From Alphaproteobacteria bacterium (lineage in GTDB: Bacteria > Pseudomonadota > Alphaproteobacteria > CBDBCS01 > JAHZLG01): a DNA stretch of 27,486 nt. Under the pieces are notes generated by a model. It was not told the DNA's origin, did not search any database, and saw nothing but the letters and a program-made list of their open reading frames with translations. The DNA is taken from positions 1-27,486 of the forward strand of contig JAHZLG010000181.1 in NCBI GenBank assembly GCA_022599995.1, written 5' to 3'. Of the stretch, positions 1,948-21,914 are shown in pieces; within the stretch, counting starts at the first letter, position 1, and every line of letters begins with the position of its first letter. The translations under genes were made by a program, and so were the position numbers.

Positions 1948-2193
1948 GGGAAGGGGCGTGCGACTGGAGGGGGGGCGTGTGCCTGAGCCGGCGTGCGCCT
2001 GGGCCCGTGTGCCTAAGCCGGCGTGACCTAATACGCACCTAACGCACCTCACTTAAAAGAACGCTGGGCAGAGCTCCTGGAATGGGGGGAAGGGGCGTGC
2101 GCCTGGAGGGGAGGGGCGTGTGCCTGAGACGGCGCGACCTAGTACGCACCTCACGCATCTCACTTAAAAGAACGCTGGGCAGAGCTCCTGGAA
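1948..2193. repeat. Imperfect tandem duplication (about 135 and 107 bp) that includes the 3' end of the TPR gene
   Basis: The 35-bp core ctcacttaaaagaacgctgggcagagctcctggaa is exact at 2048-2082 and 2159-2193. The flanking ggaaggggcgtgcg...gtgtgcctgag...acgcacct sequence is also shared. Confidence 0.95.
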
Positions 2194-5100
2194 ATCGACC
2201 CGCGACGGGGCAGGTGCGCCCGCCTCGCGAATGTACCGCGTGCGGGCACGTTGCAAGTGATCGCGATCGGCAGAAGCCAATGACACCGCATAACGCGCAA
2301 TGGTCGTGGCATCCAACGAGGCACGCGGCGCAAACAAAAAAGCAAAAACCTCGGCATAAGCACTCGACGCCGTGTCGGCACGAAAGCGATTGGACAGGGC
2401 GGTTAATCCGTCCTCATCCCCAAGCAGGCTTAGGGCTAGCCCCCAACGGATAAGAAACAATTCCGATTGAGCCGTCAGCCCCGATTCGGCACGCAAGTCA
2501 TTGGCAACCAGACGTTGCATCACAGAAGCAACCTCCTGCCATTGCTTGCCGCGCCAGTAAATGTTTGCCCGCAGCCGATCGGCTTCGAAGGAAACATCGC
2601 CGACGAGCAATGCCAGAGCCTCGTCCGTGCGCTCGAGTCTCTGCAACCCATAGGCTCGCAGCAACCGCGCCTCGCGTTGGTATCGATCTAATTCGACCGC
2701 GCCAAAGTCATTGGATTGAAGACGGGTGACGGCCTCCTCGTATTGCCCCCCCAGCATCTCCAACAGGGCAGCTTTCACAATCACCCGGCGGCGTTCAACC
2801 CCCTGATGGCGGTCAATGTACAGGCGGTTACCGACCAAATCCAAGGCGACATCGTAGGCCTCAATCCGTGCCAAACGATCTGCCAACGATTCTATCAGCC
2901 GCGCCCCTTCCTCACCCGCAGGGATCAGCTCGCGAAACCGCAGGAACAGCTCCAGCGCCTCTTGTGACTGCAGGCCGTACTCCTCGGGGCTCAACAGGGT
3001 CTGGATAAATATCTGACTCATGTTGCGCGCCACCACGAGCGAATTGGGATCGTTCTCAAGACTCGCCAAAAGGTTACGATACACGGCAAGGCCGCTCGCA
3101 TAATCGCCGCTTAGGAGGTAGAAGCACCCCAAAACTTGGCGGCCTTGCACTGCCAGCAGCCCGTCATCCCAGCCAAACAGCAGGTGCCTCAGCGTCTCGA
3201 TCGCCTCGGCGGACTCGAGAGCATCCTGGGCGTACAGCGGCGGGAACCCGTCAACAGCTGCCTGCAATCCCCAGAGCACATCGCGATCATTGGCCATCTC
3301 CAAGATGACCTGCTTGGCACGCGACGTGTTGCCTTCGTCAATATCGAAGAGCCCCACATTCAGGCGCAAGGCGTACTCCCGATGCCGCGCCGAGAAGAAG
3401 AGGTTGGCGGTCGTCAGCCGCTCTATCCAATCCCGGGCATCGACGCTGTTCCCTTGGGCGATGGCGACACGGATACGATCGGGGGCGATTTCCCGCTGCA
3501 ATGACTGCGGGTAGAGATTCAGCAACACATCGCCACGCAGAAATGATTGCTCCGCCAGTTGAAAGCGACGGTGCTTGGTGTGGTTCACCCCAAGCCAAAT
3601 GTGCGTTTCATCGTACTCACGCAAGGAGGGATTGGCGCGGAGAAGGGCTTCGGCTTGGACATACTTCCGTGCAAGCACCAATCCTGCGTAGCGTCCCAAG
3701 AGGGCAGGCAAGGTGTTCGCCTGCTCGGGGGCTTTGCTGCGGATGATCTCGTGGGTGGCAACGGCTTCGTGTCCTAAACCCTCGGACAGAAAAAAATGCA
3801 GCATGTCCAACCAGAAGGCAGGACGCTCCGATTCCAAATAATTGCCGTACGACTGGGTGAGGTAATTGTGCTCTGCGGTAAACAGGTCGAAGGTGCGCCG
3901 TCTCCCAATGAGGCCGAGCAACGACGCTTGGCGGTTAGACACATCGCGCTCGGTGAGGGGGAGCAACAAGCTGCTCGTTTCGGGAACAACGGGCTCGGCC
4001 GTGCCATCGGCGGGCAAAAAGGCCTGCGCATCACCAGCTCCATCATCAGCTTGCGGCGACGCACCGGGCGACACAGACTCGGGACGCCCCCCGCCAACCC
4101 GCCCCGCAGCCCCCTCGCGCACCACACGAAACCCCTCGCGGTGCGGCTCGAGGGTGACCGTGGGCAGGGATTCGCGAATCACCAACCCTTGAATGGTGTT
4201 CAACATCTGAAAGTCAGGCCAGCTCTGTTCGACGCGCACGCCGCCGCGTTCTTCGCCGGTCATCCCAACAAGCAGGCGATCCCCGGTTTCGGGGTCGATG
4301 AAACTCGCAGTCGCCCCCGGAGAGGGCATGACAACCAGAATGTCACTGCCGACTTCGATGCTGCCGAGCGGCACAACCCGAAGGTTTTCGGGGGGCAACG
4401 GCTGTGGATCGCGATAAAAACTATAGTGCCATTGAAACAGGCGTTTGGTGATAAGCCCGCGCGGCTGGCCGCGGGTGATGAATCGGAGCACTGTCGCCGT
4501 TGGGTGATCGATTTGCTCTACGGCGGTGACAAATGGTCTGGCAATTTCCGACAGTTGAAGCAGATTCGGGCTAAACCGCGCGCCAATGACCAACCAGTGA
4601 CTGCCACCATACGCGAATGCAGCCAGTGTGATATTCTCGGGAAGCAAAAACCCCACCGATCCGAGTTCATCGGGGGGAACCGCCGTCGGACGCAACGACA
4701 GCTCGCGCTCCTGTTGCGGCGCAAGGTTTACGAGCCGTTGATCCACACTTTTGTGCTCGACTTCCAGCAGGATTTGCTGCCCGCGACGCCACGTGTTGTA
4801 ATTGTAGTCGGCGGGCACATCGAGCAGGAACCGCACCCCAGCACCTGCCCCACTGCCCTGTTGCGCGCGGGGGTTACGAAACCCGAACTCACGGGGAAAG
4901 GCGGCGGCAGTATCCAACAGGTCAACGGTCAAATAGCCCGGACGCGAGAACTGCAAAGACAAGACACCGCCATCGTGCGCCGTGTCGACATTCACGGCAA
5001 TCGGCCAGTTGAACACAAAACGCGTCGCCGCCTTCGTCTGCAACAGGGTAATCGGCACCTCGACGAGGTCGGGCTGTGCCGCCGCCGCCTGCGGCGGGAC

Positions 5101-5871
5101 AAGGCTCACGGTGACGGTGTTGTCCTGTGTGGCAAAGCGCACATTGTAGGGCTGGTATAACGGGGCGAGAGGAATCTCCAAGCGGCGATTTTGGACATCG
5201 ACAAACCGGGGAAAACCGACCCCCACCGTGCCCAGCTGGTCAGCAAGGGCCGAGAGACTCATGGTAACCGGCTGGCGAAACCCAATGGTCAGGTTTTCTC
5301 CGGTGGTCACGCGATCGATAACAGCCGGTTCATCGAGGGCAAAGCTGATTTGCACGATTGCCCCATCGAATGACACGCTCGGCTCTGCCACGGATTCGCC
5401 CCCACGGGCCAGCAGGTCAACAATAAGGCGGCCTTCGTTACGCACCCGCCTCGGGGGGAGGCAAGCCACGCGTTCGATGGTCTCGGGACGCAGAACAAGC
5501 AACAGCACGCGATTTGTGGGATCGCGCTGGACGTCCCGAATGTACTTGCCCAGGGTCAAAAGTATCTGCGCTTCGTTGATGTCGACCTCCTCGGGGGCGG
5601 TCAGCACGACGGAGTTGTCCTCGACCGTGCAGGTGGTCGCGGCAATGATCGTGGGGTCGCCGATCAGTTGAACCCGACCGAAGCTTGCGTGCGGCGTCGA
5701 TTGAAGCCGCAGTAGGGGGGTATTGGACTGGGCACTCGCGACCCCTCCTACCCCTAGTACCCCTCCCATCCCTAGTATCCCCAATATCACTAGTATCCCC
5801 ACCAGTGTCCAAACCATCCTAGCCAAGCGGATCACCCCGCCGAATTGCCATCTCATGCGCAGGAAATTCAC
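2164..5871 (-). CDS. Large exported protein, 1235 aa: signal peptide, repeated N-terminal beta domains, C-terminal TPR-like helical region (alphaproteobacterial large TPR family)
   Basis: Hydrophobic N-terminus ending ASA-QS. Repeated segments such as TRFVFNWPIAVNVDTAHDGGVLSLQFSRP and LAAFAYGGSHWLVIG. TPR-like C-terminus (EARLLRAYGLQRLERTDEALALL, ADRLRANIYWRGKQW, RWGLALSLLGDEDGL). The GTG start overlaps the upstream stop (GTGA, 5868-5871). Confidence 0.8.
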   Translation of the reverse strand: MNFLRMRWQFGGVIRLARMVWTLVGILVILGILGMGGVLGVGGVASAQSNTPLLRLQSTPHASFGRVQLIGDPTIIAATTCTVEDNSVVLTAPEEVDINEAQILLTLGKYIRDVQRDPTNRVLLLVLRPETIERVACLPPRRVRNEGRLIVDLLARGGESVAEPSVSFDGAIVQISFALDEPAVIDRVTTGENLTIGFRQPVTMSLSALADQLGTVGVGFPRFVDVQNRRLEIPLAPLYQPYNVRFATQDNTVTVSLVPPQAAAAQPDLVEVPITLLQTKAATRFVFNWPIAVNVDTAHDGGVLSLQFSRPGYLTVDLLDTAAAFPREFGFRNPRAQQGSGAGAGVRFLLDVPADYNYNTWRRGQQILLEVEHKSVDQRLVNLAPQQERELSLRPTAVPPDELGSVGFLLPENITLAAFAYGGSHWLVIGARFSPNLLQLSEIARPFVTAVEQIDHPTATVLRFITRGQPRGLITKRLFQWHYSFYRDPQPLPPENLRVVPLGSIEVGSDILVVMPSPGATASFIDPETGDRLLVGMTGEERGGVRVEQSWPDFQMLNTIQGLVIRESLPTVTLEPHREGFRVVREGAAGRVGGGRPESVSPGASPQADDGAGDAQAFLPADGTAEPVVPETSSLLLPLTERDVSNRQASLLGLIGRRRTFDLFTAEHNYLTQSYGNYLESERPAFWLDMLHFFLSEGLGHEAVATHEIIRSKAPEQANTLPALLGRYAGLVLARKYVQAEALLRANPSLREYDETHIWLGVNHTKHRRFQLAEQSFLRGDVLLNLYPQSLQREIAPDRIRVAIAQGNSVDARDWIERLTTANLFFSARHREYALRLNVGLFDIDEGNTSRAKQVILEMANDRDVLWGLQAAVDGFPPLYAQDALESAEAIETLRHLLFGWDDGLLAVQGRQVLGCFYLLSGDYASGLAVYRNLLASLENDPNSLVVARNMSQIFIQTLLSPEEYGLQSQEALELFLRFRELIPAGEEGARLIESLADRLARIEAYDVALDLVGNRLYIDRHQGVERRRVIVKAALLEMLGGQYEEAVTRLQSNDFGAVELDRYQREARLLRAYGLQRLERTDEALALLVGDVSFEADRLRANIYWRGKQWQEVASVMQRLVANDLRAESGLTAQSELFLIRWGLALSLLGDEDGLTALSNRFRADTASSAYAEVFAFLFAPRASLDATTIARYAVSLASADRDHLQRARTRYIREAGAPAPSRVDFQELCPAFF

Positions 5872-7058
5872 AGGTCAGACCCTTGGTTCATCAAGACGAG
5901 CGATTCAACCGCGTCACTGTCAATTGCCTGGCTGCTCCGCGGAGAGATATGCCCGATGGGGAACAACCCCGGCCCGACGGGTTCCACCAAAACATAGGTT
6001 GTGCCCCCAACCGTAATCGCAGCGTCGCCCTCCCGCGGGGGAATGGCTAGGCCAAGAAAGGCATGCTCGGGGATCAGCACCATCACGGTGGTAACATCCG
6101 GCCACATCGCACCCAGCACGGCAGCCATGGCTGTTGTCTTCGTATCACAGTCGCCCTTGTTCAAATCGATCAGGGCGTAGGGTGACACAAACCCCGCGAT
6201 CCCTTCGCGGTCACGCGTCAGCAATTCATCGTAGGGAATGGATTGGAAAAACCGCAGGGCAAAGGCGAGCTGCTCCCGCCGGTCGCTGGACGCGCGCAGG
6301 AAGATATTGGACAACACATCGAGCCGCTCGGCATATTCGCCCGCAATAGCCGCATAGTTCAACCGCACAAAACCCAGTCGGTCATCGCGGATCAGGTAGT
6401 GACTTGCCATGATATTGTCGGCGCGGTCATCCAATGCCTCGCGCACATCGAATTGGCCGTACTCCTCCTGCACCACCGCCAGTTGCCGGTGGTAATTCTC
6501 GGTGAGCAGGGCGTATTGCTCGTCAAAGTGGGCGATGGCGTCATCAATGTCCTGCTTCTGCCGCCGCAGATAAACCCCACTGCCCTCGCGTCCGACCCTG
6601 ATGGACTCGCCCTCGCGCGTCACCACGTAATTGATGGTACCGGGCAGGCGATCGTTCACAAAGGCGGCAAGGGCAATCAGGTCTTGCTCATAGTCATCGA
6701 ACAAGCCTTGCTGGGCTTCTAAGTAGCGGGCGTTGCGTTGATCCTGAAACGCCTGCCCATCCGCCCTGATCTGTGCCGAGAGCGCGTCCAATGAGGGAAT
6801 ATCACGGATGCTTGCCTCGACCTCTGCCCGGGGGAGACGCAACCTTATGCGCCACGTTTGCCGGTTGGCATCGGCAAATTCGTATTTGTAGGTGAATTGG
6901 TCATCGGTGATCTCCTTCGCAAAAGAGAGTTGCTGGGCAAGCGCAGGAGGCGCGGCCAACCCAAGACTCAGCGCACCGAGCAGCGCACCGCACACCCATG
7001 TGCCTCGCCGCACAAGAGCACGCAGCGACACAACCGATTTATCCAAAAACGCAGCCAT
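5868..7058 (-). CDS. Secreted transglutaminase-like cysteine-protease-fold protein, about 396 aa
   Basis: Signal peptide ending APPALA-QQ after ATG 7058. The C-terminal domain has FFQSIPY, KGDCDTKT (Cys codon 6147-6149), PEHAFLG (His codon 6063-6065) and YVLVEPVGP. The ORF-track extension to 7400 overlaps rsmI and is low complexity. Confidence 0.7.
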   Translation of the reverse strand: MAAFLDKSVVSLRALVRRGTWVCGALLGALSLGLAAPPALAQQLSFAKEITDDQFTYKYEFADANRQTWRIRLRLPRAEVEASIRDIPSLDALSAQIRADGQAFQDQRNARYLEAQQGLFDDYEQDLIALAAFVNDRLPGTINYVVTREGESIRVGREGSGVYLRRQKQDIDDAIAHFDEQYALLTENYHRQLAVVQEEYGQFDVREALDDRADNIMASHYLIRDDRLGFVRLNYAAIAGEYAERLDVLSNIFLRASSDRREQLAFALRFFQSIPYDELLTRDREGIAGFVSPYALIDLNKGDCDTKTTAMAAVLGAMWPDVTTVMVLIPEHAFLGLAIPPREGDAAITVGGTTYVLVEPVGPGLFPIGHISPRSSQAIDSDAVESLVLMNQGSDL

Positions 7059-7087
7059 CAACCGAAGAAAGACCAAAGAAAGAAACG

Positions 7088-7119
7088 CCACCAACAACGA
7101 ACCCCACCAACAACGAACC
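7088..7119. repeat. 16-bp exact tandem duplication (ccaccaacaacgaacc x2)
   Basis: Read directly at 7088-7103 and 7104-7119. Confidence 0.9.
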
Positions 7120-7263
7120 CGATGACCGAATTCACCATCTTTATCCCTCAGGGGAGCACCAGCGCGGGGAGCCATCTGAACCATCACGGGGAACCATAGA
7201 GGGGAACGGAGAAAACTGGCTTGTGCCCAACCCCCTACATCATGCCATAGGCGGTCGACAAAA

Positions 7264-7968
7264 TCACGCCACCTTCGCATGCCACGGGGGCACGTAACCC
7301 TCCGAGGCCAGCATGACCACGAACTCACCCTTGATCGAGACCGTCCCACTGGCGACCAACTCAGCAAGCGAAGGGAGCGTGCCCCGATAAATGCTTTCAA
7401 ATTTCTTCGTCAGCTCCCTGCCGAGCACCCCGTAGCGCGTGGGAAACATCGTCGCAAGCCGACTGACCTGATGCACGATACGATGCGGAGACTCATAAAA
7501 TACCAAGGTCGCCGGTAACTCGGCCACCAAGCCGAGCTCTTTGCGGACGCCATGCTCGGTGCGCGGCAGAAAACCGCCGAAATAAAACCGGTCGGTGGGC
7601 AACCCCGCGCAGCACAGGGCCGTGGTGATGGCACACGCCCCGGGGATGGGAACAATGACGATGCCCGCAGCGATCGCCTCGGTGACCAGCCGATAGCCCG
7701 GGTCGGCAATCAGCGGCGTGCCTGCATCGGACATCAGCCCGATAGAAGCCCCTTCTTGCAGCAACGCCAAAATGGCCGGGCGCACCTCGGCAGCATTGTG
7801 ATCATGGTAAGGCCGCACCTTCGCGGCCACTGCATGGCGTACCAGCAATTGCTTCGCCACACGGGTGTCCTCGCAGAGCACCTGGTCGCACGCCGCAAGC
7901 ATCTCAAGCGAACGCAACGAGACGTCAGCAAGGTTGCCTATCGGGGTGGCAATGATGAACAGCGGCAT
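7264..7968 (-). CDS. rsmI: 16S rRNA (cytidine1402-2'-O)-methyltransferase, short 234-aa form
   Basis: ATPIGNLAD, LCEDTR, SDAGTPLIADPG, PIPGACA, FGGFLP, FYESPHR, RELTKKFE, KGEFVV. Confidence 0.95.
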   Translation of the reverse strand: MPLFIIATPIGNLADVSLRSLEMLAACDQVLCEDTRVAKQLLVRHAVAAKVRPYHDHNAAEVRPAILALLQEGASIGLMSDAGTPLIADPGYRLVTEAIAAGIVIVPIPGACAITTALCCAGLPTDRFYFGGFLPRTEHGVRKELGLVAELPATLVFYESPHRIVHQVSRLATMFPTRYGVLGRELTKKFESIYRGTLPSLAELVASGTVSIKGEFVVMLASEGYVPPWHAKVA

Positions 7969-11952: not shown

Positions 11953-12735
11953 TTAGCTGGCTTGGGTCGCTTTCGCGAATTGCACCGGGACAAACGAGGT
12001 CGTCACATCATCATAGAACTGCTTGGCAACCTGCGCATTCAACGCAATGGTTTTGTCGGCAGCGTCTTGCACGAAGCTCGTCCAGGTGGCGAAGGCACTT
12101 TGGAAATCAGTCGTCGCCGTCAATTGCTTCGCAAGGGTGGTTTGCTCGGTGATAATGTCTTGGCCAAGGGAAACCGAGGTGCGGTTGGCTTCTTCGGCGG
12201 ATTTCGCCAATTTCTCGGACAGGTCGCTCCAGTTTTTCATGACCGATGTCTGAAATGCCACCGACTGCTCGATGCCTTTGCTGAATTGGTCGGTGGTTTT
12301 TTGCACCGAGTCGCGGGTCACGTGAGCAGCATCATTGAGGTTTTGCTCGGCGAACGTTTGGGTATTTTGTGTCATGGGATTGGTGGTCTTTGAAGAGGAA
12401 GAAAAGAAAGAAGGGGAAGAAACAGCAGCCGCTGGCTGGGGCACTGCCTGAGGGGAAGCAACAACTGCCTGAGGCACTGCAGCTTGAGGGGAAGCAACAA
12501 CCGCTTGAGGCACTGCAGCTTGAGGGGAAGCAACAACTGCCTGAGGCACTGCTTGGAGAACAGCAATTGTCTGGGGTTGGGGCTGGAGCAGTGCCTTAGG
12601 CACAACCGCTTGCTGAACTGGAGCCACAACCGTCACCGTCTTCTTGCGCGCCTTGCGCGATTTGGCCGGGGTTGATTGCTGCGATGCCCCCGACTTGGCG
12701 GCGGACTGCGAGTTGGTTGATGGGGTTTGCGACAT
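11953..12735 (-). CDS. phaP: Phasin-family (PHA granule-associated) protein with a long basic/repetitive N-terminal extension
   Basis: The C-terminal 120 aa are amphipathic and phasin-like (SAEEANRTSVSLGQDIITEQTTLAKQLTATTDFQSAFATWTSFVQ). SD GGAGA lies 9 nt before ATG 12735. PhaR-type boxes are upstream. Confidence 0.72.
   Translation of the reverse strand: MSQTPSTNSQSAAKSGASQQSTPAKSRKARKKTVTVVAPVQQAVVPKALLQPQPQTIAVLQAVPQAVVASPQAAVPQAVVASPQAAVPQAVVASPQAVPQPAAAVSSPSFFSSSSKTTNPMTQNTQTFAEQNLNDAAHVTRDSVQKTTDQFSKGIEQSVAFQTSVMKNWSDLSEKLAKSAEEANRTSVSLGQDIITEQTTLAKQLTATTDFQSAFATWTSFVQDAADKTIALNAQVAKQFYDDVTTSFVPVQFAKATQAS
12441..12553. repeat. In-frame 36-bp tandem repeat (about 3 copies; QAVVASPQAAVP) in the phasin gene
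   Basis: Units start at 12449, 12485 and 12521. Confidence 0.92.
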
Positions 12736-12854: not shown

Positions 12855-12866
12855 TGCACCGCACAA
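12855..12866 (+). promoter_or_regulatory. PhaR/AniA-type operator box
   Basis: TGCACCGCACAA matches 12/12 the alphaproteobacterial PhaR consensus as I recall it (TGCRNYGCASMA). It lies 10 bp upstream of the phasin -35 element. Confidence 0.7.
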
Positions 12867-13192: not shown

Positions 13193-14758
13193 TCACGTCC
13201 CAAGCGGGAGGTCTTCTGCAATCAACGCCTCGGGCGTCATGTGGGGGCGCAACAACACTGGCCGACCACGATAGATGCCGACCTCGGCAGGGAGACCAAA
13301 CAGATTGTACGCATTGGCCATGCTCGACCCATAGGCTCCGGCATCCAAGACGGCGACGGCGTCGCCTGCCTGCAACGTGGCGGGCAACAGCCTTGGGGTT
13401 GCCCATGTATCGGTCGATTCGCACACAGGGCCAGCAATGCGGTAGGGCGTCGTCACAGTCTGCGACACAACCGGCACAATATGATGCCACGCATCATAAA
13501 GGGCAGGGCGCATCAGGGTATGCATGCCTGCGTCTAACAATGCGATGGGAGCAATATCGCTTGGACTGTTGCCACTGTTTTTGTCATTGTCGCTGTCACT
13601 GTCATTGTCATTGTCGTGGGCATCGCCATTGTCGCTGTCATAGTCGTTGTCATGGGCATGGGCGCGGGCATCGCCGGGTTTCAGATCGTCATCACCCGTG
13701 GCAAGACGCATCGGTGGGGCTTTTGTCCGCATCACGCGGCTCAACAACACCCCCGCAGGGCCAACCAGCCAACGCCCGGGCTCGATGGCTATTGCCATCT
13801 CCCCGGCATCGATACGTGCCCGCGCGGGAGCTAACCCCTTCGTGAGAGCCGCAGCATAATCGGTGGGCGATGGGGGCGTCTCATCTTTGTAGCGAATGCC
13901 GAGCCCGCCACCGAGATCGAGGCAGGGCACAGCAAGCCCCTCCGCAAGCAGCTGCATTGCCAGGGTTGCAATCGCCATGACCGCCGCCTCCAACGGAACA
14001 AGGCTTTGCATCTGCGATCCGATATGCACAGCCAACCCGCCGGGGATCAGCCCGTCGACGTTTTCGGGACTATGCAGGGCACGGTAGACCATCGGGACTG
14101 CCTCGATCTGGATGCCGAATTTGTCGCCCGCACTGCCCGTGCTGATCTGCGCGAGGGTGTCCGCACGAACATCGGGGTTCACCCGCAACCCGACTTTTGC
14201 CTTGCGCCCGACTCGCTCGGCACAGGCCCGAATCGCGGCGACTTCTTCGATGGACTCGGCATTGATCTGCCCGATCCCCATGCGGATGGCGGTTTCAATG
14301 TCGGTATCCGACTTGCCCACCCCCGAGTAGATCATCGCCGAAGGGGCTATTCCGGCGGCGGTGGCGGCGTGCGCCTCGCCGACCGAGACCACATCCGCCC
14401 CCCAGCGCGGCGCCAACGCCTCCAGGAGGCCGCGGCGCGGATTCGCCTTCACGGCATAATACCCCTGCACCGGGAAGGGCAAGGCTGCCAACAGGGCTTC
14501 TCCGCGCTGGACAACCTGATCAATGTTCGTCACGTAGAGCGGCGAGCCGTATTGCTCGATCAGCGCAGCCGCAGACAAGGGAGGGGCAGGCTTCTCTGAC
14601 TCAGCATTCGACTCGTTGCAGGATCGATCTGTCGGGTCAGCGACAAAATTCAGAGTGCCCTGCTCATACCCCATCCACGCATGGGCGGGATTCCCCGCGA
14701 GCAAGGCATCGAAGGGGGTGGCATCCGCGGACGTAGCATGCGAGGTGGGGTGGGTCAT
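13193..14758 (-). CDS. lysA: Diaminopimelate decarboxylase with an acidic low-complexity insertion, about 521 aa
   Basis: YAVKAN (PLP Lys), DVVSVGE, SGVGK, NAES, LRVNP, KFG, HIGSQ, LDLGGG, EPGR, DAGM, GPVCESTD, GAYG. ATG 14758 chosen as start. Confidence 0.95.
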   Translation of the reverse strand: MTHPTSHATSADATPFDALLAGNPAHAWMGYEQGTLNFVADPTDRSCNESNAESEKPAPPLSAAALIEQYGSPLYVTNIDQVVQRGEALLAALPFPVQGYYAVKANPRRGLLEALAPRWGADVVSVGEAHAATAAGIAPSAMIYSGVGKSDTDIETAIRMGIGQINAESIEEVAAIRACAERVGRKAKVGLRVNPDVRADTLAQISTGSAGDKFGIQIEAVPMVYRALHSPENVDGLIPGGLAVHIGSQMQSLVPLEAAVMAIATLAMQLLAEGLAVPCLDLGGGLGIRYKDETPPSPTDYAAALTKGLAPARARIDAGEMAIAIEPGRWLVGPAGVLLSRVMRTKAPPMRLATGDDDLKPGDARAHAHDNDYDSDNGDAHDNDNDSDSDNDKNSGNSPSDIAPIALLDAGMHTLMRPALYDAWHHIVPVVSQTVTTPYRIAGPVCESTDTWATPRLLPATLQAGDAVAVLDAGAYGSSMANAYNLFGLPAEVGIYRGRPVLLRPHMTPEALIAEDLPLGT

Positions 14759-15313: not shown

Positions 15314-18300
15314 ATGCCCGACCATTCCGCCGACGCCACGGCAGCCTCTGTGCTTTTGCCCAAAACGAGCTTTCCGATGCGGGGCAACCTCGCCAAACGC
15401 GAACCCGACATGTTGAAGCATTGGGCCGCCATCCAGTTGAATGACACGCGCAAGGCACGCGCCGATGCTTTCGATCACGATGATCCGCGTCCGTCTTACT
15501 CCTTGCTGGACGGGCCTCCCTATGCCAATGGGCATCTCCATATTGGGCATGCGGTGAACAAGATTCTGAAGGATGTCGTGGTGCGCAGCCGCTTTCTCCT
15601 TGGCTATCGGGTGTTTTATCAGCCCGGATGGGATTGCCACGGGCTGCCCATCGAGTGGAAAATAGAAGAGCAAATCCGTGCCGAGGGCAAGACGCGCGAC
15701 TCCCTCTCGGTTTTGGAAATCCGCCAACGCTGCCAAGCTTTTGCCAAGGGGTGGGTTGATGTGCAGCGCGAGGAGTTTCAACGCATGGGCATGATGGTGG
15801 ACTGGGACAACCCCTATCTCACCATGACTCCGGCCGTGCAAGCGACCATCGTGCGGGAGCTCGGGCATTTCCTGATGAACGGCGGGTTGTATCAGGGCAA
15901 AAAGCCGGTGATGTGGTCGGTGGTCGAACAGACCGCCCTCGCCGATGCCGAGATCGAGTATCACGATCGCACCTCGCCGAGTATCGATGTGGCATTTCCG
16001 TTGGTCGACGCGGGTGGTGCGACCGGTGCGACCGGGGCGTCCGATGCGACCGGGGCGACCGGGGCGTCCGATGCGACCGGGGCGACCGGGGGGTCCGATG
16101 CGACCGGGGCGACCGGGGCGACCGGGGCGACCGGGGCGGACATCGAAGCCGCCCTGTCGGGGGCATCGATCGTCATCTGGACAACAACCCCGTGGACAAT
16201 CCCCAGTAATCGCGCCATCGCCTATGCTGATGCGATCGATTATGTCGTGGTGGCAGTGACACGCGACGGTGCTATCCGCAAATTAGTGATCGCGAAGGCC
16301 TTGCTCGAGGCCTTCTTGGCACGGGTCAATGCCTATGTCCCTCCCTCCGATGCGCCTGCCTCCGATATGCCTGCGGGTGTCGCGCGCGCAACTGTGTTGG
16401 TCGAGTGCAAGGGACACCACCTCGCCGGGAAGGTCTGTCTCCACCCGTGGCACGCCCTTGATCCGCAGTATCATCGCGCGACCCCTTTGTTGCCCGGCGA
16501 CCACGTGACCGACACCGCGGGAACGGGGTTTGTCCATATCGCCCCCGGCCACGGAGAAGAGGATTTCGAGCTGGGCCTTGTCCATGACCTGCCCAATCCG
16601 GACACCATCTCTTCGCACGGGCAATTTCTCGACACCGTCGCCCTGATGGCAGGACAAACAGTCATCGATGCCGAAACTGGGAAATATGGCAACGCCAATA
16701 AGGCCGTGACCGCCCTGCTTGTCCAAAGCAACGCCCTGTTGAGCGAGGGGAAAATCCGTCACTCCTACCCGCATTCGTGGCGGTCGAAGGCCCCGCTGAT
16801 CTTCCGCAACACTTCGCAGTGGTTCATCTCGATGACCACGAACGGGTTACGCAACACCTCATTGCGGGCACTGAAGGGCGTGGACTTCTACCCGCCGGCC
16901 GGACGCGCCCGGCTGACCTCTATGATCGAGGCGCGCCCCGATTGGTGCATCTCACGACAACGCGCATGGGGGGTGCCGTTGCCGATCTTTGTGCACCGCG
17001 CATCGGGAGAGCCACTTCGCGACCAAGCCATGCTCGATCGAATTGCCGAAGCCTTCGCTACCCATGGCGCCGACTGCTGGTTCGACCGCGACCCCGCCGA
17101 ATTTCTGGGGGACGACTATGACCCCGCCGACTACACACAGGTAACCGATATTGCCGATGTCTGGTTTGACTCCGGCTCGGCCTACGTATTCGGATTGGAG
17201 CGGCTCGGGTTGCCGGTGCCGGCTGATCTGTTCCTCGAGGGGTCTGACCAACACCGCGGGTGGTTTCATTCGTCCTTGTTGCATGCTGCAGGCACGCGCG
17301 GGATTGCCCCTTATCGTCATTTGCTGACACACGGTTTTGCCCTCGACGGCGAGGGGCGGAAAATGTCCAAGTCGCTGGGCAACATTATTGCCCCCCAAAA
17401 GGTGATGTCTCAGTACGGGGCTGATATTCTGCGCCTGTGGGTGGTGATGTCGGATTACACCGAAGACCTGCGCATCTCCGACCTGATCCTCAAGCAGACG
17501 GCCGAAAGCTACCGCAGGATTCGCAACACCCTGCGCTGGTTGTTGGGTAACCTCGCCGCACATCCGATCCCCGCCGAGGAGGACGTGCAACTGGACGCCC
17601 TTGATCGCTACGTGCTCCACCGGTTGCATCACACCAATGTCGCGATTCTGGCTGCCTACGACACCTATCAATTCACCCATGCCATGCGGCTTGCGCACGA
17701 TTTTTGTGCCGTCGAGCTCTCTGCCTTGTACTTCGACATTCGGAAAGATCGCATGTATTGCGATGCTCCGTCTGATCGCCTGCGGCAGGGGGCGGTGTTT
17801 GTGCTCGACCGGGTGTTCGCAGGGTTGGTGCGTTGGTTTGCGCCAGTCCTTTGCTTCACCAGCGAAGAGGCGTGGATGACGCGGCATCGCGAAGCTAATG
17901 CCACGACTGCGGACGCCCTCGAATCGGTGCACCTCGCCACCAAGGTTGATTTCCCTGACCATTGGCACGACCCTGCGTACGCGGCGCAGTTTTCGGCTCT
18001 CTTGCCGGTGCGCGATGCGGTGAATGGTGTCCTTGAACAGGCCCGCCGCGACGGAGTCGTGAAATCTGGCCTCGAAGCGTCGATCACCTTGCCCGCCGGG
18101 ATCGCTGCCGATGCTGCTGCGGCTGGCCTTGACCTTGCCACCCTTGCCGACTTCTTTATCGTCTCGGCCGTGCACATCGCGCCTGTCGAGGACGGGGAAA
18201 CAGCCGCCGAAAACCACGAGGGCATACAAGTCGCGGTTTCCCCTCTCACCGCCCATGCCGACTATCGGCGGTGTGACCGGTGCTGGCGTTATACGCCAAC

Positions 18301-19142: not shown

Positions 19143-20435
19143 ATGACTGACTCGGTTGCTCCTTCTTTCAAAGTTCACGATCTTGCCCTTGCCGACTGGG
19201 GGCGTCTCGAGATCACCCTGGCAGAAAACGAAATGCCCGGGTTGATGATGCTTCGTACCCTGTACGCTGCCGACAAACCCCTCGCTGGGGCACGGATAGC
19301 CGGGTGCATTCATATGACCATTCAAACGGCGGTGCTGATCGAAACATTGATTGCCCTCGGGGCCGAGGTGAAATGGTCATCGTGCAACCTGTTCTCGACC
19401 CAAGACCACGCGGCGGCTGCCCTTGCGCGCGATGGCATCCCCGTCTTTGCGTGGAAGGGGGAGACCGAAGAAGAGTATTGGTGGTGCATCCGCCAGACCC
19501 TCGATGGATGGACGCCCAATTTGTTACTCGACGATGGGGGCGATCTGACGGGGCTCGTCCATAGTGATTATGCCTCCTTGATCGACGGCATCCGTGGCGT
19601 GTCCGAAGAGACCACCACCGGGGTGATGATACTCAATCGCCTGCACCAGGAGGGGGCATTGAAAATGCCGGCTATCAGTGTGAATGATTCCGTAACCAAG
19701 TCCAAATTCGACAACGTCTATGGGTGTCGGGAGAGCCTTGTCGATGCCATCCGACGCGCCACCGATCTGATGATGGCGGGCAAGACTGCTGTCGTGTGTG
19801 GTTATGGCGACGTTGGCAAGGGCTCGGCGGCATCGTTGCGCAATGCTGGGTGCCGGGTGCAGGTTACCGAAATCGACCCTATTTGCGCCTTACAGGCCTC
19901 GATGGACGGGTATGCGGTGGTGTCGCTCACTGACGTGGCGGCAGATGCCGACATCGTGGTCACTGCGACGGGGAATGCTGGGATCGTCACCCTCGAGCAC
20001 ATGCGTGCCATGAAGGACCTTGCGGTTGTCTGCAACATTGGGCATTTCGACAATGAGATCGAGGTCGAGGCACTCCGTAACCTCCAGTGGACGTCGATCA
20101 AGCCTCAGGTTGACCAGATCACCTTCCCCGACGGCAAGCGGCTGGTGTTGCTGGCAGAGGGCAGACTTGTGAATTTGGGCTGTGCGACCGGGCATCCGAG
20201 CTTTGTCATGTCGACCTCGTTCACCAATCAGGTGCTGGCACAGATCGAATTATGGCAACGCGGCACCGACTACGCGGTCGGCGTGCACCGCCTGCCCCGC
20301 CACCTTGATGAGACGGTCGCACGATACCATCTGCCGAAGCTGGGGGCGAAGCTCACCACCCTTACCGAGGCACAGGCCGACTATATTGGCGTGTCGGTGG
20401 ATGGCCCCTATAAGGACGCCACCTATCGTTATTGA
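19143..20435 (+). CDS. ahcY: Adenosylhomocysteinase (SAH hydrolase), short 430-aa form
   Basis: [80 protein letters not shown]. Confidence 0.98.
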
Positions 20436-20500
20436 TCAGCATTGATCGTCGATACTGATGCTCGGTATTGCTTGGTGTTGCGCCGTGGCATCGAGCGCGA

Positions 20501-20674
20501 GGCGGCTAGTCGTCTTGGCGGTTAGCCGCCTTGGTGGCTAGTCGTCTTGGTGGTTGGCCGTCTTGGCGGCTAGCCGTCTTGGTGGTTAGTCGTCTTGGCG
20601 GTTAGCCGTCTTGGTGGTTGGCCGTCTTGGCGGTTAGCCGCCTTGGTGGCTAGTCGCCTTGGTGGCTAGTCGCC
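20501..20674 (+). repeat. 11 x 16-bp tandem array of a 14-bp palindrome plus TT (GGYGGYTRGYCGYCTT)
   Basis: Units every 16 bp from 20501. The reference palindrome is GGCGGCTAGCCGCC. Confidence 0.97.
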
Positions 20675-20676
20675 GC

Positions 20677-20716
20677 AAAAAAGAAGCCGCCGACCTCAAG
20701 CGAGGATCGACGGCTT
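20677..20716 (-). terminator. Rho-independent terminator
   Basis: Minus strand: aagccg-tcga-t-cctc [gctt] gagg-tcgg-cggctt followed by cttttttg (14-bp stem, one bulge). Confidence 0.85.
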
Positions 20717-20885
20717 ATCAAGGAGGAAACGCCAAGTGCAATAAAGCACTCCAAGCCCAAAGGCTTGACCCTTTCTACATAGGTGCTGCTTGGATGCGTT
20801 GCAACATGATTGGCGGAATTTATTTTGCAGTGCGAAGTGACCCCGACACGACAATCCCGCATCCACTTGGCAGTTTCCTCCATAG
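20677..20885 (-). ncRNA. Candidate structured small RNA with an anti-Shine-Dalgarno seed (suhB/alpha-r8/MmgR-like 3' module)
   Basis: UUUCCUCCUU lies directly before the terminator. A 17-bp long-range inverted repeat joins 20722-20738 and 20864-20881, with internal hairpins. A GATAAT -10-like element lies just upstream and no convincing protein is encoded. Confidence 0.55.
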
Positions 20886-20954
20886 TCGCCGAATTATCAC
20901 GTTATTTTGAATGTGATGTGACTCCCTTTTCGCATCGTGATGTGCCGAATATTC

Positions 20955-20969
20955 TGTTGCAATGCAACA
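20955..20969. promoter_or_regulatory. Perfect palindrome TGTTGCA-A-TGCAACA containing a PhaR-like TGC-N3-GCA core
   Basis: Read directly. It lies about 70-85 bp upstream of the putative sRNA 5' end. Confidence 0.5.
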
Positions 20970-21115
20970 ATAACGCCGCCGCATCGAATCAAGGGCAAGC
21001 CATGCGACGGTCTGCTGTGCCTGTCTTTTGTTTTGGCGTCGTTCTTCTGCATCGGGGCAGGGCACAGTCATGGTGCAGGAAGCGACTTCCTTATCGGTGC
21101 TCTCGCGTTGTCCGC

Positions 21116-21182
21116 TCACTAGTGATCCACACTAGTGTGGCACGCTAGCTAGCTAGCTAGTGAGCTTGCACACTAGTGTGCA
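21116..21182. repeat. Cluster of CTAG-centred perfect palindromes and (CTAG)4
   Basis: tcactagtga 21116-21125, ccacactagtgtgg 21127-21140, (ctag)4 21145-21160, tgcacactagtgtgca 21167-21182. Confidence 0.92.
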
Positions 21183-21206
21183 CGGTGACTTATTGATCTT
21201 TGGAAT

Positions 21207-21914
21207 TTGTCCTTGTCCCTTTTGCCACTCCACTATGACTGCGACCGATCAGCCGAGCGGTTTGCGGTAACCGATGCCCACGCATCGCTGTTGGCGGCAA
21301 TCCAGCAGGCTCGATCGACCCCGAGCACCCAAGACTTGCCTGTGCTGGTCTGCGGCCCCCCACGCAGCGGCAAAACGCATTTTGGCAACTGGTGGCAGCA
21401 TCATGATGCGTTACGTGGTCAGCCAGCGCGCGTCTGGGACATCACCCCGCAGCAGTGGGAAACCGCCCTTACCGATGACGGTGCCGCCAAGACACTGATC
21501 GCCACCCTCGATCAGTGGAAGACGCCCGCACGGCATCAACGCTTGATTCTCGCCCCGATCAGCCTTGCGCACCTCGTCGGAGGCGCAGACATTGCTCCTT
21601 CGCCTCTGCCCCGGTGGCCGGAGTTGCGATCACGCCTGCTCACCTTGCCCCACGGCAGCATGCCCGCCGCCGATGACGCCCTTTGCATGGCGGTGGCGCG
21701 CAAGGTCGCCCGCGATCGCGGACTAGACGTTGAGGCACAGCCCTTTCAAGGGTTTGTCGAGGTGCTTGTCCGCAACACCCGGCGCCGGATCGATGCCATC
21801 GAAGACCGGGTGATTGCCTTTCATGCCTTCGCCCAAGAGCGGTCGCTTTCTCCTTCGACGCACAGCTTTGCGGCCTATGCCCGTGCAACGGCAGTCGCTA
21901 GCGACTGCCGCTAG
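21207..21914 (+). CDS. hdaA: DnaA regulatory inactivator HdaA/DnaA-like AAA+ protein (divergent)
   Basis: N-terminal LSLLPL (clamp-motif-like), Walker A GPPRSGKTH, ELRSRL arginine-finger box, and ADDAL...KVARDRGL. TTG start is the first possible after an in-frame TGA at 21186. Confidence 0.72.
   Translation: MSLSLLPLHYDCDRSAERFAVTDAHASLLAAIQQARSTPSTQDLPVLVCGPPRSGKTHFGNWWQHHDALRGQPARVWDITPQQWETALTDDGAAKTLIATLDQWKTPARHQRLILAPISLAHLVGGADIAPSPLPRWPELRSRLLTLPHGSMPAADDALCMAVARKVARDRGLDVEAQPFQGFVEVLVRNTRRRIDAIEDRVIAFHAFAQERSLSPSTHSFAAYARATAVASDCR

Follow-up and report, generated by a model that had tools for sequence, protein, structure and literature searches.

The 767-nt spacer between ahcY (19143-20435, plus strand) and an hdaA-like gene (21207-21914, plus strand, with a weak NCBIfam match) very probably holds a diverged alpha-r8/MmgR-like small RNA (sRNA) gene with an inverted copy of its seed beside it. 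Our preferred reading, with a probability of roughly 0.58, is that the spacer carries two divergent siblings, hereafter units A and B, under common PhaR-type operators. The seed, hairpins, and terminator of A, the inverted seed, three PhaR-type operator cores, and a palindromic TTGCAA between the two units are all present in the sequence. The window, i.e., the whole 27,486-nt stretch of DNA analyzed here, belongs to a small host-associated assembly with many local repeats (1.70 Mb in 310 contigs, 68% complete), and DNA of this contig was matched in sponge-metagenome sequencing runs, no RNA run being listed among them. The original prediction had drawn the same region as one switchable, self-sequestering minus-strand RNA of about 210 nt.

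Unit A, on the minus strand, has the following features:

20677..20770, minus: unit A, an alpha-r8/MmgR-like sRNA gene of about 92 nt, its 5' end placed from the predicted promoter
20677..20716, minus: intrinsic terminator of A, with arms at 20716-20707 and 20693-20684 and U6 at 20682-20677
20720..20729, minus: anti-Shine-Dalgarno (anti-SD) 10-mer of A, UUUCCUCCUU (family: UUUCCUCCCU), read from the sequence
20734..20768, minus: pair of weak hairpins on the 5' side of A, one at about 20767-20752 and one at about 20751-20734, from folding
20776..20804, minus: weak predicted promoter of A, TTGCAA-17-TATGTA, from the promoter model

The Rfam scan of the window returned no family at its cut-off. 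With 22 bits (20746-20670, minus strand; E of 0.045 against all families), A matches RF00519 (suhB) below the Rfam gathering cut-off of 41 bits, and we therefore call it alpha-r8-like rather than a formal member. It is nonetheless the top suhB match of the genome according to both the Rfam model and R1, an independent model built from 31 outside alpha-r8 copies that scores A at 24.5 bits (with rough E-values of 2.4e-5 for the window and 0.0015 for the genome). The predicted alpha-r8/MmgR-like anti-SD sRNA was supported for A. The strong terminator that had been proposed was also found, as was the anti-SD stretch immediately before it. This terminator, at -23.0 kcal/mol, falls within the range of 30 family copies (-18.1 to -28.4 kcal/mol), lies directly 3' of the core, and has a stem that opens with GCCG, as the family requires; the weak hairpin that characterizes the family 5' of the core is present as well. 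Folding of the 92- to 94-nt RNA (z of -4.5) gives a pair of weak hairpins followed by an anti-SD stretch that is left open and by the -23 kcal/mol terminator. The 10-mer of A retains 9 of the 10 bases of the family sequence, and the changed base is a U in A and a C in all 31 outside copies. According to a promoter model trained on 30 alpha-r8 promoters or upstream regions, the predicted promoter of A scores 4.3 (training range, 3.4 to 19.3), with 52 nt between its -10 and the seed (family, 41 to 68 nt). In many promoters of alphaproteobacteria, the final T of the -10 element is missing. The 6S family (RF00013), which had been named as a possible known identity, gave no cut-off match in the window and was not among the 10 matches with E up to 5 in 20400-21200. 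A second Rfam match in the genome, on contig C259, was discarded as an sRNA candidate as it appears to lie inside a coding gene, and miRNA and snoRNA matches near the spacer were far below their Rfam cut-offs.

An inverted copy of the seed lies 142 nt from that of A and forms part of a candidate gene on the plus strand:

20799..20826, plus: predicted promoter of B, TTGCAA-16-TATTTT, from the promoter model
20833..20930, plus: unit B, a putative diverged inverted sibling of about 98 nt, from the seed matrix (the whole-RNA model being not significant)
20864-20883, plus: seed region of B, with the 10-mer UUUCCUCCAU at 20874-20883
20884..20930, plus: terminator-like hairpin of B (20884-20923), weak, with CCC and U4 after it, from folding

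The 17-bp pairing of 20881-20864 with 20738-20722, on which the original prediction was built, is present with one bulge, spans the family-conserved part, and goes beyond chance, its score being reached by none of 2000 dinucleotide shuffles. An accidental match beside A as the only feature is consequently very unlikely. Matches as good were found in 25 of 12,580 genome windows, i.e., in 24 besides the locus itself, and the A-B similarity stops within 18 nt, as an accident would have it; however, the match falls on the seed of the best alpha-r8 candidate of the genome, with an operator and a promoter at family spacing. A seed matrix derived from 30 outside copies, free of any window sequence, was used in an ungapped scan, in which B on the plus strand ranked 2nd of 3,376,656 positions with 10.0 bits (compared to a training range of 24.6 to 46.8 bits) and A scored below 8 bits. 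The 10-mer of B shares 9 of 10 bases with the family core and has a 1-nt insertion just upstream, and its 8-nt core is predicted to be open (P of being unpaired, 0.99). Its predicted promoter scores 8.3, the second best in 20660-21210 after one located before the hdaA-like gene, with the -10 lying 53 nt from the seed. The palindromic hexamer TTGCAA serves as the -35 of both predicted promoters. The promoter model thus sets a promoter at family distance before each seed, which we count in favor of the two siblings.

The remainder of B is less typical of the family. RF00519 was not listed for B at E up to 5, and R1 gave a nonsignificant 5.1 bits. Its hairpin folds well on the plus strand (-12.3 kcal/mol, z of -2.8) and not on the minus strand (-6.3 kcal/mol, z of -0.5), which favors the two siblings, yet as a terminator it falls short of every one of the 30 family terminators in strength, with the U4 three bases away from the stem. 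Outside the seed, the A-B similarity is not significant (164 of 2000 shuffles were as good) and none was found past 18 nt, while comparison of the 6 nt after the seed of B with the family gave a P of 0.07.

Two divergent siblings would give a 17-bp "stem" exactly over the conserved seed automatically, and the long self-sequestering stem is therefore likely a by-product of inverted duplication rather than the fold of one RNA. If transcribed, the 20885-20677 RNA would indeed fold as had been drawn (-88.2 kcal/mol, z of -5.5), and both local helices are there (20750-20746 with 20739-20735, and 20791-20798 with 20858-20865). As the main reading, a single RNA of about 210 nt is not supported: the last 92 nt at its 3' end already show the complete family layout and a predicted promoter of their own, and its "5' arm" bears the marks of a plus-strand sibling gene. 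The proposed competition between two folds was not supported either: opening the seed costs 14.6 kcal/mol (-88.2 versus -73.6 kcal/mol), so the long fold would act as a lock and not as a balanced switch. The mean probability that the 10-mer of A is unpaired is 0.84 in the 92-nt RNA, 0.61 in a 99-nt RNA, and 0.17 in RNAs of 209 and 284 nt. The GATAAT proposed as the -10 element of this RNA exists, though at 20898-20893 instead of 20897-20892, and the minus-strand promoter that it would form, GTCACA-18-GATAAT, is the only E. coli-type match and stands at chance level (1 found, 0.5 +/- 0.7 expected). The same GATAAT is one arm of the plus-strand hairpin of B. Self-sequestration is thus abandoned as the main reading and survives in a modified form, as a long minus-strand RNA masking the seed of A.

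The alternative offered with the original prediction, an mRNA for a 56-amino-acid peptide whose SD sequence is hidden by its own 3' end in the style of type I toxins, is extremely unlikely. The 56-codon GTG frame at 20866-20696 is present, open down to 20696, and GGAGG lies 10 nt ahead of the GTG, but this GGAGG is the complement of the seed of B. In addition, the ORF has a coding score of -0.41, lower than that of 99.96% of called-gene pieces of the same length but higher than that of 93% of off-frame pieces, its best 19-residue hydropathy is 0.9, and no Pfam or NCBIfam match was obtained for it. The ORF thus looks noncoding, and the toxin mRNA was rejected.

The operator-like elements of the spacer and of the phasin gene, along with two candidates close to the upstream palindrome, are as follows:

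20795..20803, no strand assigned: PhaR-type operator core 1 (YGCRNYGCR), which overlaps the palindromic -35 common to both predicted promoters, by motif match
20826..20834, plus: PhaR-type operator core 2, covering the position where B is predicted to start, by motif and matrix
20955..20969, no strand assigned: perfect palindrome with PhaR-type operator core 3 (20958-20966), by matrix
20961..21095, plus: unit C, uncertain, which may be a third copy that has diverged strongly or a small RNA of another kind
20969..20998, minus: weak candidate promoter TTGCCC-18-GTTATT for an RNA of about 284 nt, score 6.8
12855..12863, no strand assigned: PhaR-type operator before the phasin gene, placed first in the genome by the operator matrix

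The PhaR motif was taken from bioRxiv 10.1101/2025.02.17.638283, and the operator matrix comprises 21 alpha-r8 -10/operator sites. Motif matches occur in the spacer, as had been predicted, and also at the phasin gene, and the perfect palindrome with a PhaR-type core lies upstream on the minus strand. Core 1, the operator of A, is 74 nt from the seed of A and 79 nt from that of B; the family spacings between core and seed cluster at 40 to 68 and 72 to 83 nt. It scores below 9 bits in the -10/operator matrix. Core 2, at 48 nt from the seed of B (a common family spacing), ranks 18th of 3,379,136 positions, among which the palindrome ranks 2nd on the minus strand (20.0 bits) and 4th on the plus strand (18.2 bits). 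Finding three cores in the 767-nt spacer has a chance probability of 0.016, and finding them within a 172-nt span, which was picked afterwards, one of 2e-4. In 25 of the 30 outside copies, a PhaR core precedes the seed by no more than 110 nt, compared to 6 to 10% of random windows. These 30 top alpha-r8 copies come from 30 genomes of different families, and the core is often found just after the -10. PhaR control of the alpha-r8 family therefore looks class-wide.

Unit C, which on the plus strand begins with the palindrome, may be a third, reshaped alpha-r8 copy. It is collinear with the promoter and 5' part of A (2 of 2000 shuffles were as good, for boundaries picked by eye), although the alignment is not significant under stricter scoring (236 of 2000 shuffles). 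Its long hairpin at 21038-21086 favors the plus strand (-25.0 versus -15.3 kcal/mol on the minus strand, z of -3.1), its seed-like bases are paired inside this hairpin, and the promoter model found no good -35 for it.

The state of B and C would also suit a reading in which A is the sole working gene and the 17-base match is left over from a duplication whose remains, B and C, are decaying. In B the family terminator has been lost, one nucleotide has been inserted beside the seed, and the model failed; C has lost its seed to its own hairpin; and the host genome is small, host associated, and repeat rich. We nevertheless consider such decay unlikely, as it is not expected to leave precisely the seed, operator, and promoter spacing intact and remove everything else, and the chance probability given above for the three operator cores argues against it as well.

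Similarly unlikely is that the inverted copy was recruited as an anti-seed. In this scenario, a long minus-strand RNA starting at about 20960 (or about 20886) would run antisense through B into the terminator of A and would either fold on itself with the seed locked or pair with free A in trans, making it an inactive precursor or a CrfA-like sponge. The strongest operator of the spacer, the palindrome, is slightly better in the minus direction (20.0 versus 18.2 bits), and TTGCCC-18-GTTATT lies just before it, as in the family layout; its score of 6.8 exceeds the 4.3 of the promoter of A, which we count against the two siblings. The sole E. coli-type promoter match is also on this strand, the long RNA would mask the 10-mer of A (P of being unpaired, 0.17), and pairing of A with antisense B yields -39.6 kcal/mol, cofolding bringing a net gain of about 15 kcal/mol. 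A hairpin at 20812-20860, of a kind that a long minus RNA might carry, exists on the minus strand only (z of -1.5 for a fixed window and -2.4 for chosen ends). B is poor as an sRNA gene, given its 5.1 bits and weak terminator, and sponging of alpha-r8 RNAs by a seed complement has been proven in Caulobacter (PMC12559287). However, both promoter candidates for the long RNA are weak or at chance level. In TTGCCC-18-GTTATT the -11 A is missing and the spacer measures 18 nt, a length found in none of the 30 training promoters, and GATAAT is already accounted for as an arm of the B hairpin. Across 20868-20951, a fold signal was detected on the plus strand and none on the minus strand, and the palindrome can equally serve unit C on the plus strand. 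The long RNA must also cross two more operators and both short promoters. Finally, a seed complement was found within 330 nt upstream in 0 of 31 outside alpha-r8 copies (best score of 15, compared to 29 here). A more specific version, in which the inverted duplication became a built-in off-switch with a PhaR-controlled promoter at 20998-20960 producing the RNA of about 284 nt, is distinctly unlikely. If true, this RNA would silence B as an antisense and lock or sponge the seed of A, and one 300-bp locus would encode an sRNA, its sibling, and a sponge, with occupancy of the three operators deciding among them.

For the two divergent siblings, we propose the following mechanism. Sigma-70 RNA polymerase would read the single TTGCAA as the -35 of either A or B, and since one hexamer serves either unit, initiation at A would come at the expense of B and vice versa. 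Both promoters would be covered by a PhaR/AniA-type repressor as long as PHB granules do not titrate it away; once they do, A, B, and the phasin gene would be released at the same time. A, at about 92 nt, would load on Hfq via the U-tail of its terminator, and its exposed UUUCCUCCUU would pair with Shine-Dalgarno sequences, repressing translation of carbon and nutrient genes. With the same seed and a weak terminator, B would be a minor, less stable sibling.

The PHB context is in part present in the genome, which encodes hfq, phaC, and phaB. The phasin gene (11953-12735, minus strand) matches Pfam Phasin_2 with 25.0 bits, just over the cut-off of 24.9; it is thus real, and the proposed co-regulation with the sRNA holds at the level of a common operator motif. 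The phasin operator fits the long motif published in bioRxiv 10.1101/2025.02.17.638283. The Phasin_2 domain begins at residue 157, after an N-terminal extension of about 140 residues that is rich in Ala, Pro, Gln, and Val and encoded with 36-nt repeats. A further long-form PhaR box (G000:C80:295-311) lies about 300 nt before a thiolase-like gene that precedes phaB. Across the genome, 12 of 51 long-form boxes lie between genes, which is no enrichment given that called genes leave 27% of the genome uncovered. The usual position of phaR is divergent, next to phaAB; it was not found upstream of phaAB here. Searches with three models did not find phaR in this 68% complete assembly, so that PhaR repression is proposed here from motifs alone; the gene is present in 35 of 61 genomes of the class. 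Target prediction was performed on crude gene calls, 1,135 of which had enough upstream sequence. The start of the phasin gene ranked 123rd with a 31-nt probe of A and 536th with the core, and direct targeting of the phasin by A is therefore not favored. Among the top predicted targets were a formyltransferase, an AMP-binding ligase, and a HemY-like gene (three tested).

The core of the locus is ordinary, as alpha-r8 RNAs are widespread and multiple copies are known: RF00519 reached an E of 0.01 or lower in 105 of 151 class genomes. This frequency, together with the description of the family as alphaproteobacterial in PMC12559287, points to Alphaproteobacteria as the class of the host. The family layout consists of weak hairpins, an anti-SD stretch, and a terminator (PMC12559287 and PMC7143759). 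MmgR of Sinorhizobium meliloti (RF00519) resembles A in its three stem-loops, anti-SD motif, and intrinsic terminator, as well as in the PhaR/AniA-type operator of its promoter and a host with PHB genes and Hfq (PMC7143759 and bioRxiv 10.1101/2025.02.17.638283). MmgR is 77 nt long, compared to about 92 nt for A; A has 9 of the 10 core bases, lies below the Rfam cut-off, is not FGase adjacent, and, unlike MmgR, has an inverted seed copy 142 nt away. Linkage to an FGase gene marks the main alpha-r8 copy of most species. The FGase gene of the genome is on contig C111, where no model match was found; this linkage is also missing in the paralogues SisB-D (PMC12559287). For the action of A, a model is provided by SuhB of Sphingopyxis granuli TFA, which represses translation by Hfq-aided pairing with the SD region and is activated by a LysR-type regulator (bioRxiv 10.64898/2025.12.09.693200).

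Like A and B, SisA-D of Caulobacter crescentus are several alpha-r8 copies in one genome with little in common besides the seed; they are dispersed and have unrelated promoters (PMC12559287), whereas A and B stand back to back and would have one -35 hexamer and its operators in common. The minus strand of B, which complements the alpha-r8 seed over 17 pairs, also resembles the second stem-loop of CrfA from C. crescentus, which carries a G/A-rich complement of the same seed. CrfA is a separate RNA for which expression and Hfq-dependent pairing have been shown (PMC12559287 for both points), while the seed complement of B lies in cis, apparently comes from an inverted sRNA gene copy, and is known from sequence alone. 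The back-to-back layout suggests a simple route to a CrfA-like sponge, namely, inverted duplication of an sRNA gene followed by transcription of the other strand.

Adjacent alpha-r8 siblings are known (PMC12559287). Three tandem same-strand copies, each with PhaR-type boxes upstream, occur at G058:C60:54432-55030. The unusual part here is the back-to-back layout with one palindromic -35. A search for inverted pairs of the canonical seed in 400 genomes of the class gave one match that looks coding, and a reversed control also gave one; canonical inverted pairs at a spacing of 117 to 177 nt gave 3 matches in a collection of 185,579 species, all titled as non-alphaproteobacteria. We count the missing precedent for divergent pairs in these searches against the two siblings. 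Being stricter than the A/B locus, which neither of them matches, both patterns would overlook diverged pairs in other genomes. The literature searches turned up no account of divergent alpha-r8 pairs; a 2016 family phylogeny, cited for adjacent copies, may mention them. For RNA scans in general, the locus carries a caution, in that two divergent siblings mimic one self-locking RNA.

Among relatives of the host genome, none was available from its genus or family and one from its order. A DNA-level match better than an E of 0.02 was found in none of 40 genomes, and a metagenome search with the hdaA-like neighbor returned one distant match (31%). The order-mate (G001) has one ordinary alpha-r8 copy (37 bits) located far from ahcY, and a PhaR domain was not found in it. 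Taken as a whole, the locus hints at continued PHB-linked RNA control in a deep-branching bacterium found in a sponge metagenome. From the same study, a second DNA run covers 20857-21113 with a single contig, at whose end are 20 loose nucleotides, presumably a sequencing adapter. This contig gives no covariation because no internal differences were listed.

Repeats are found on both sides of the units. A 16-nt near-palindromic unit, repeated in tandem about 11 times, fills the gap between ahcY and the terminator of A (20501-20676), the plus strand of which folds as a very long rod (z of -9). Each unit matches 9 of 10 bases just 5' of the seed of A, which may be due to chance. At the other end, 21114-21190 consists of short, CTAG-rich palindromic repeats, the end of which is overlapped by the best promoter of the spacer (21166-21194), and 54 nt of this stretch (21114-21167) are missing from the second run. 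The whole window has 25 tandem-repeat rows; many lie in spacers, and some are in-frame insertions within housekeeping genes, such as 18-nt units at 13582-13652 in a PLP-dependent decarboxylase and 9-nt units at 16019-16138 in an ORF that we take to be ileS-like from reading its sequence rather than from a family search. Two neighboring ORFs, 2164-5871 (1235 amino acids) and 5868-7400 (510 amino acids), had no Pfam match at an E of 0.1.
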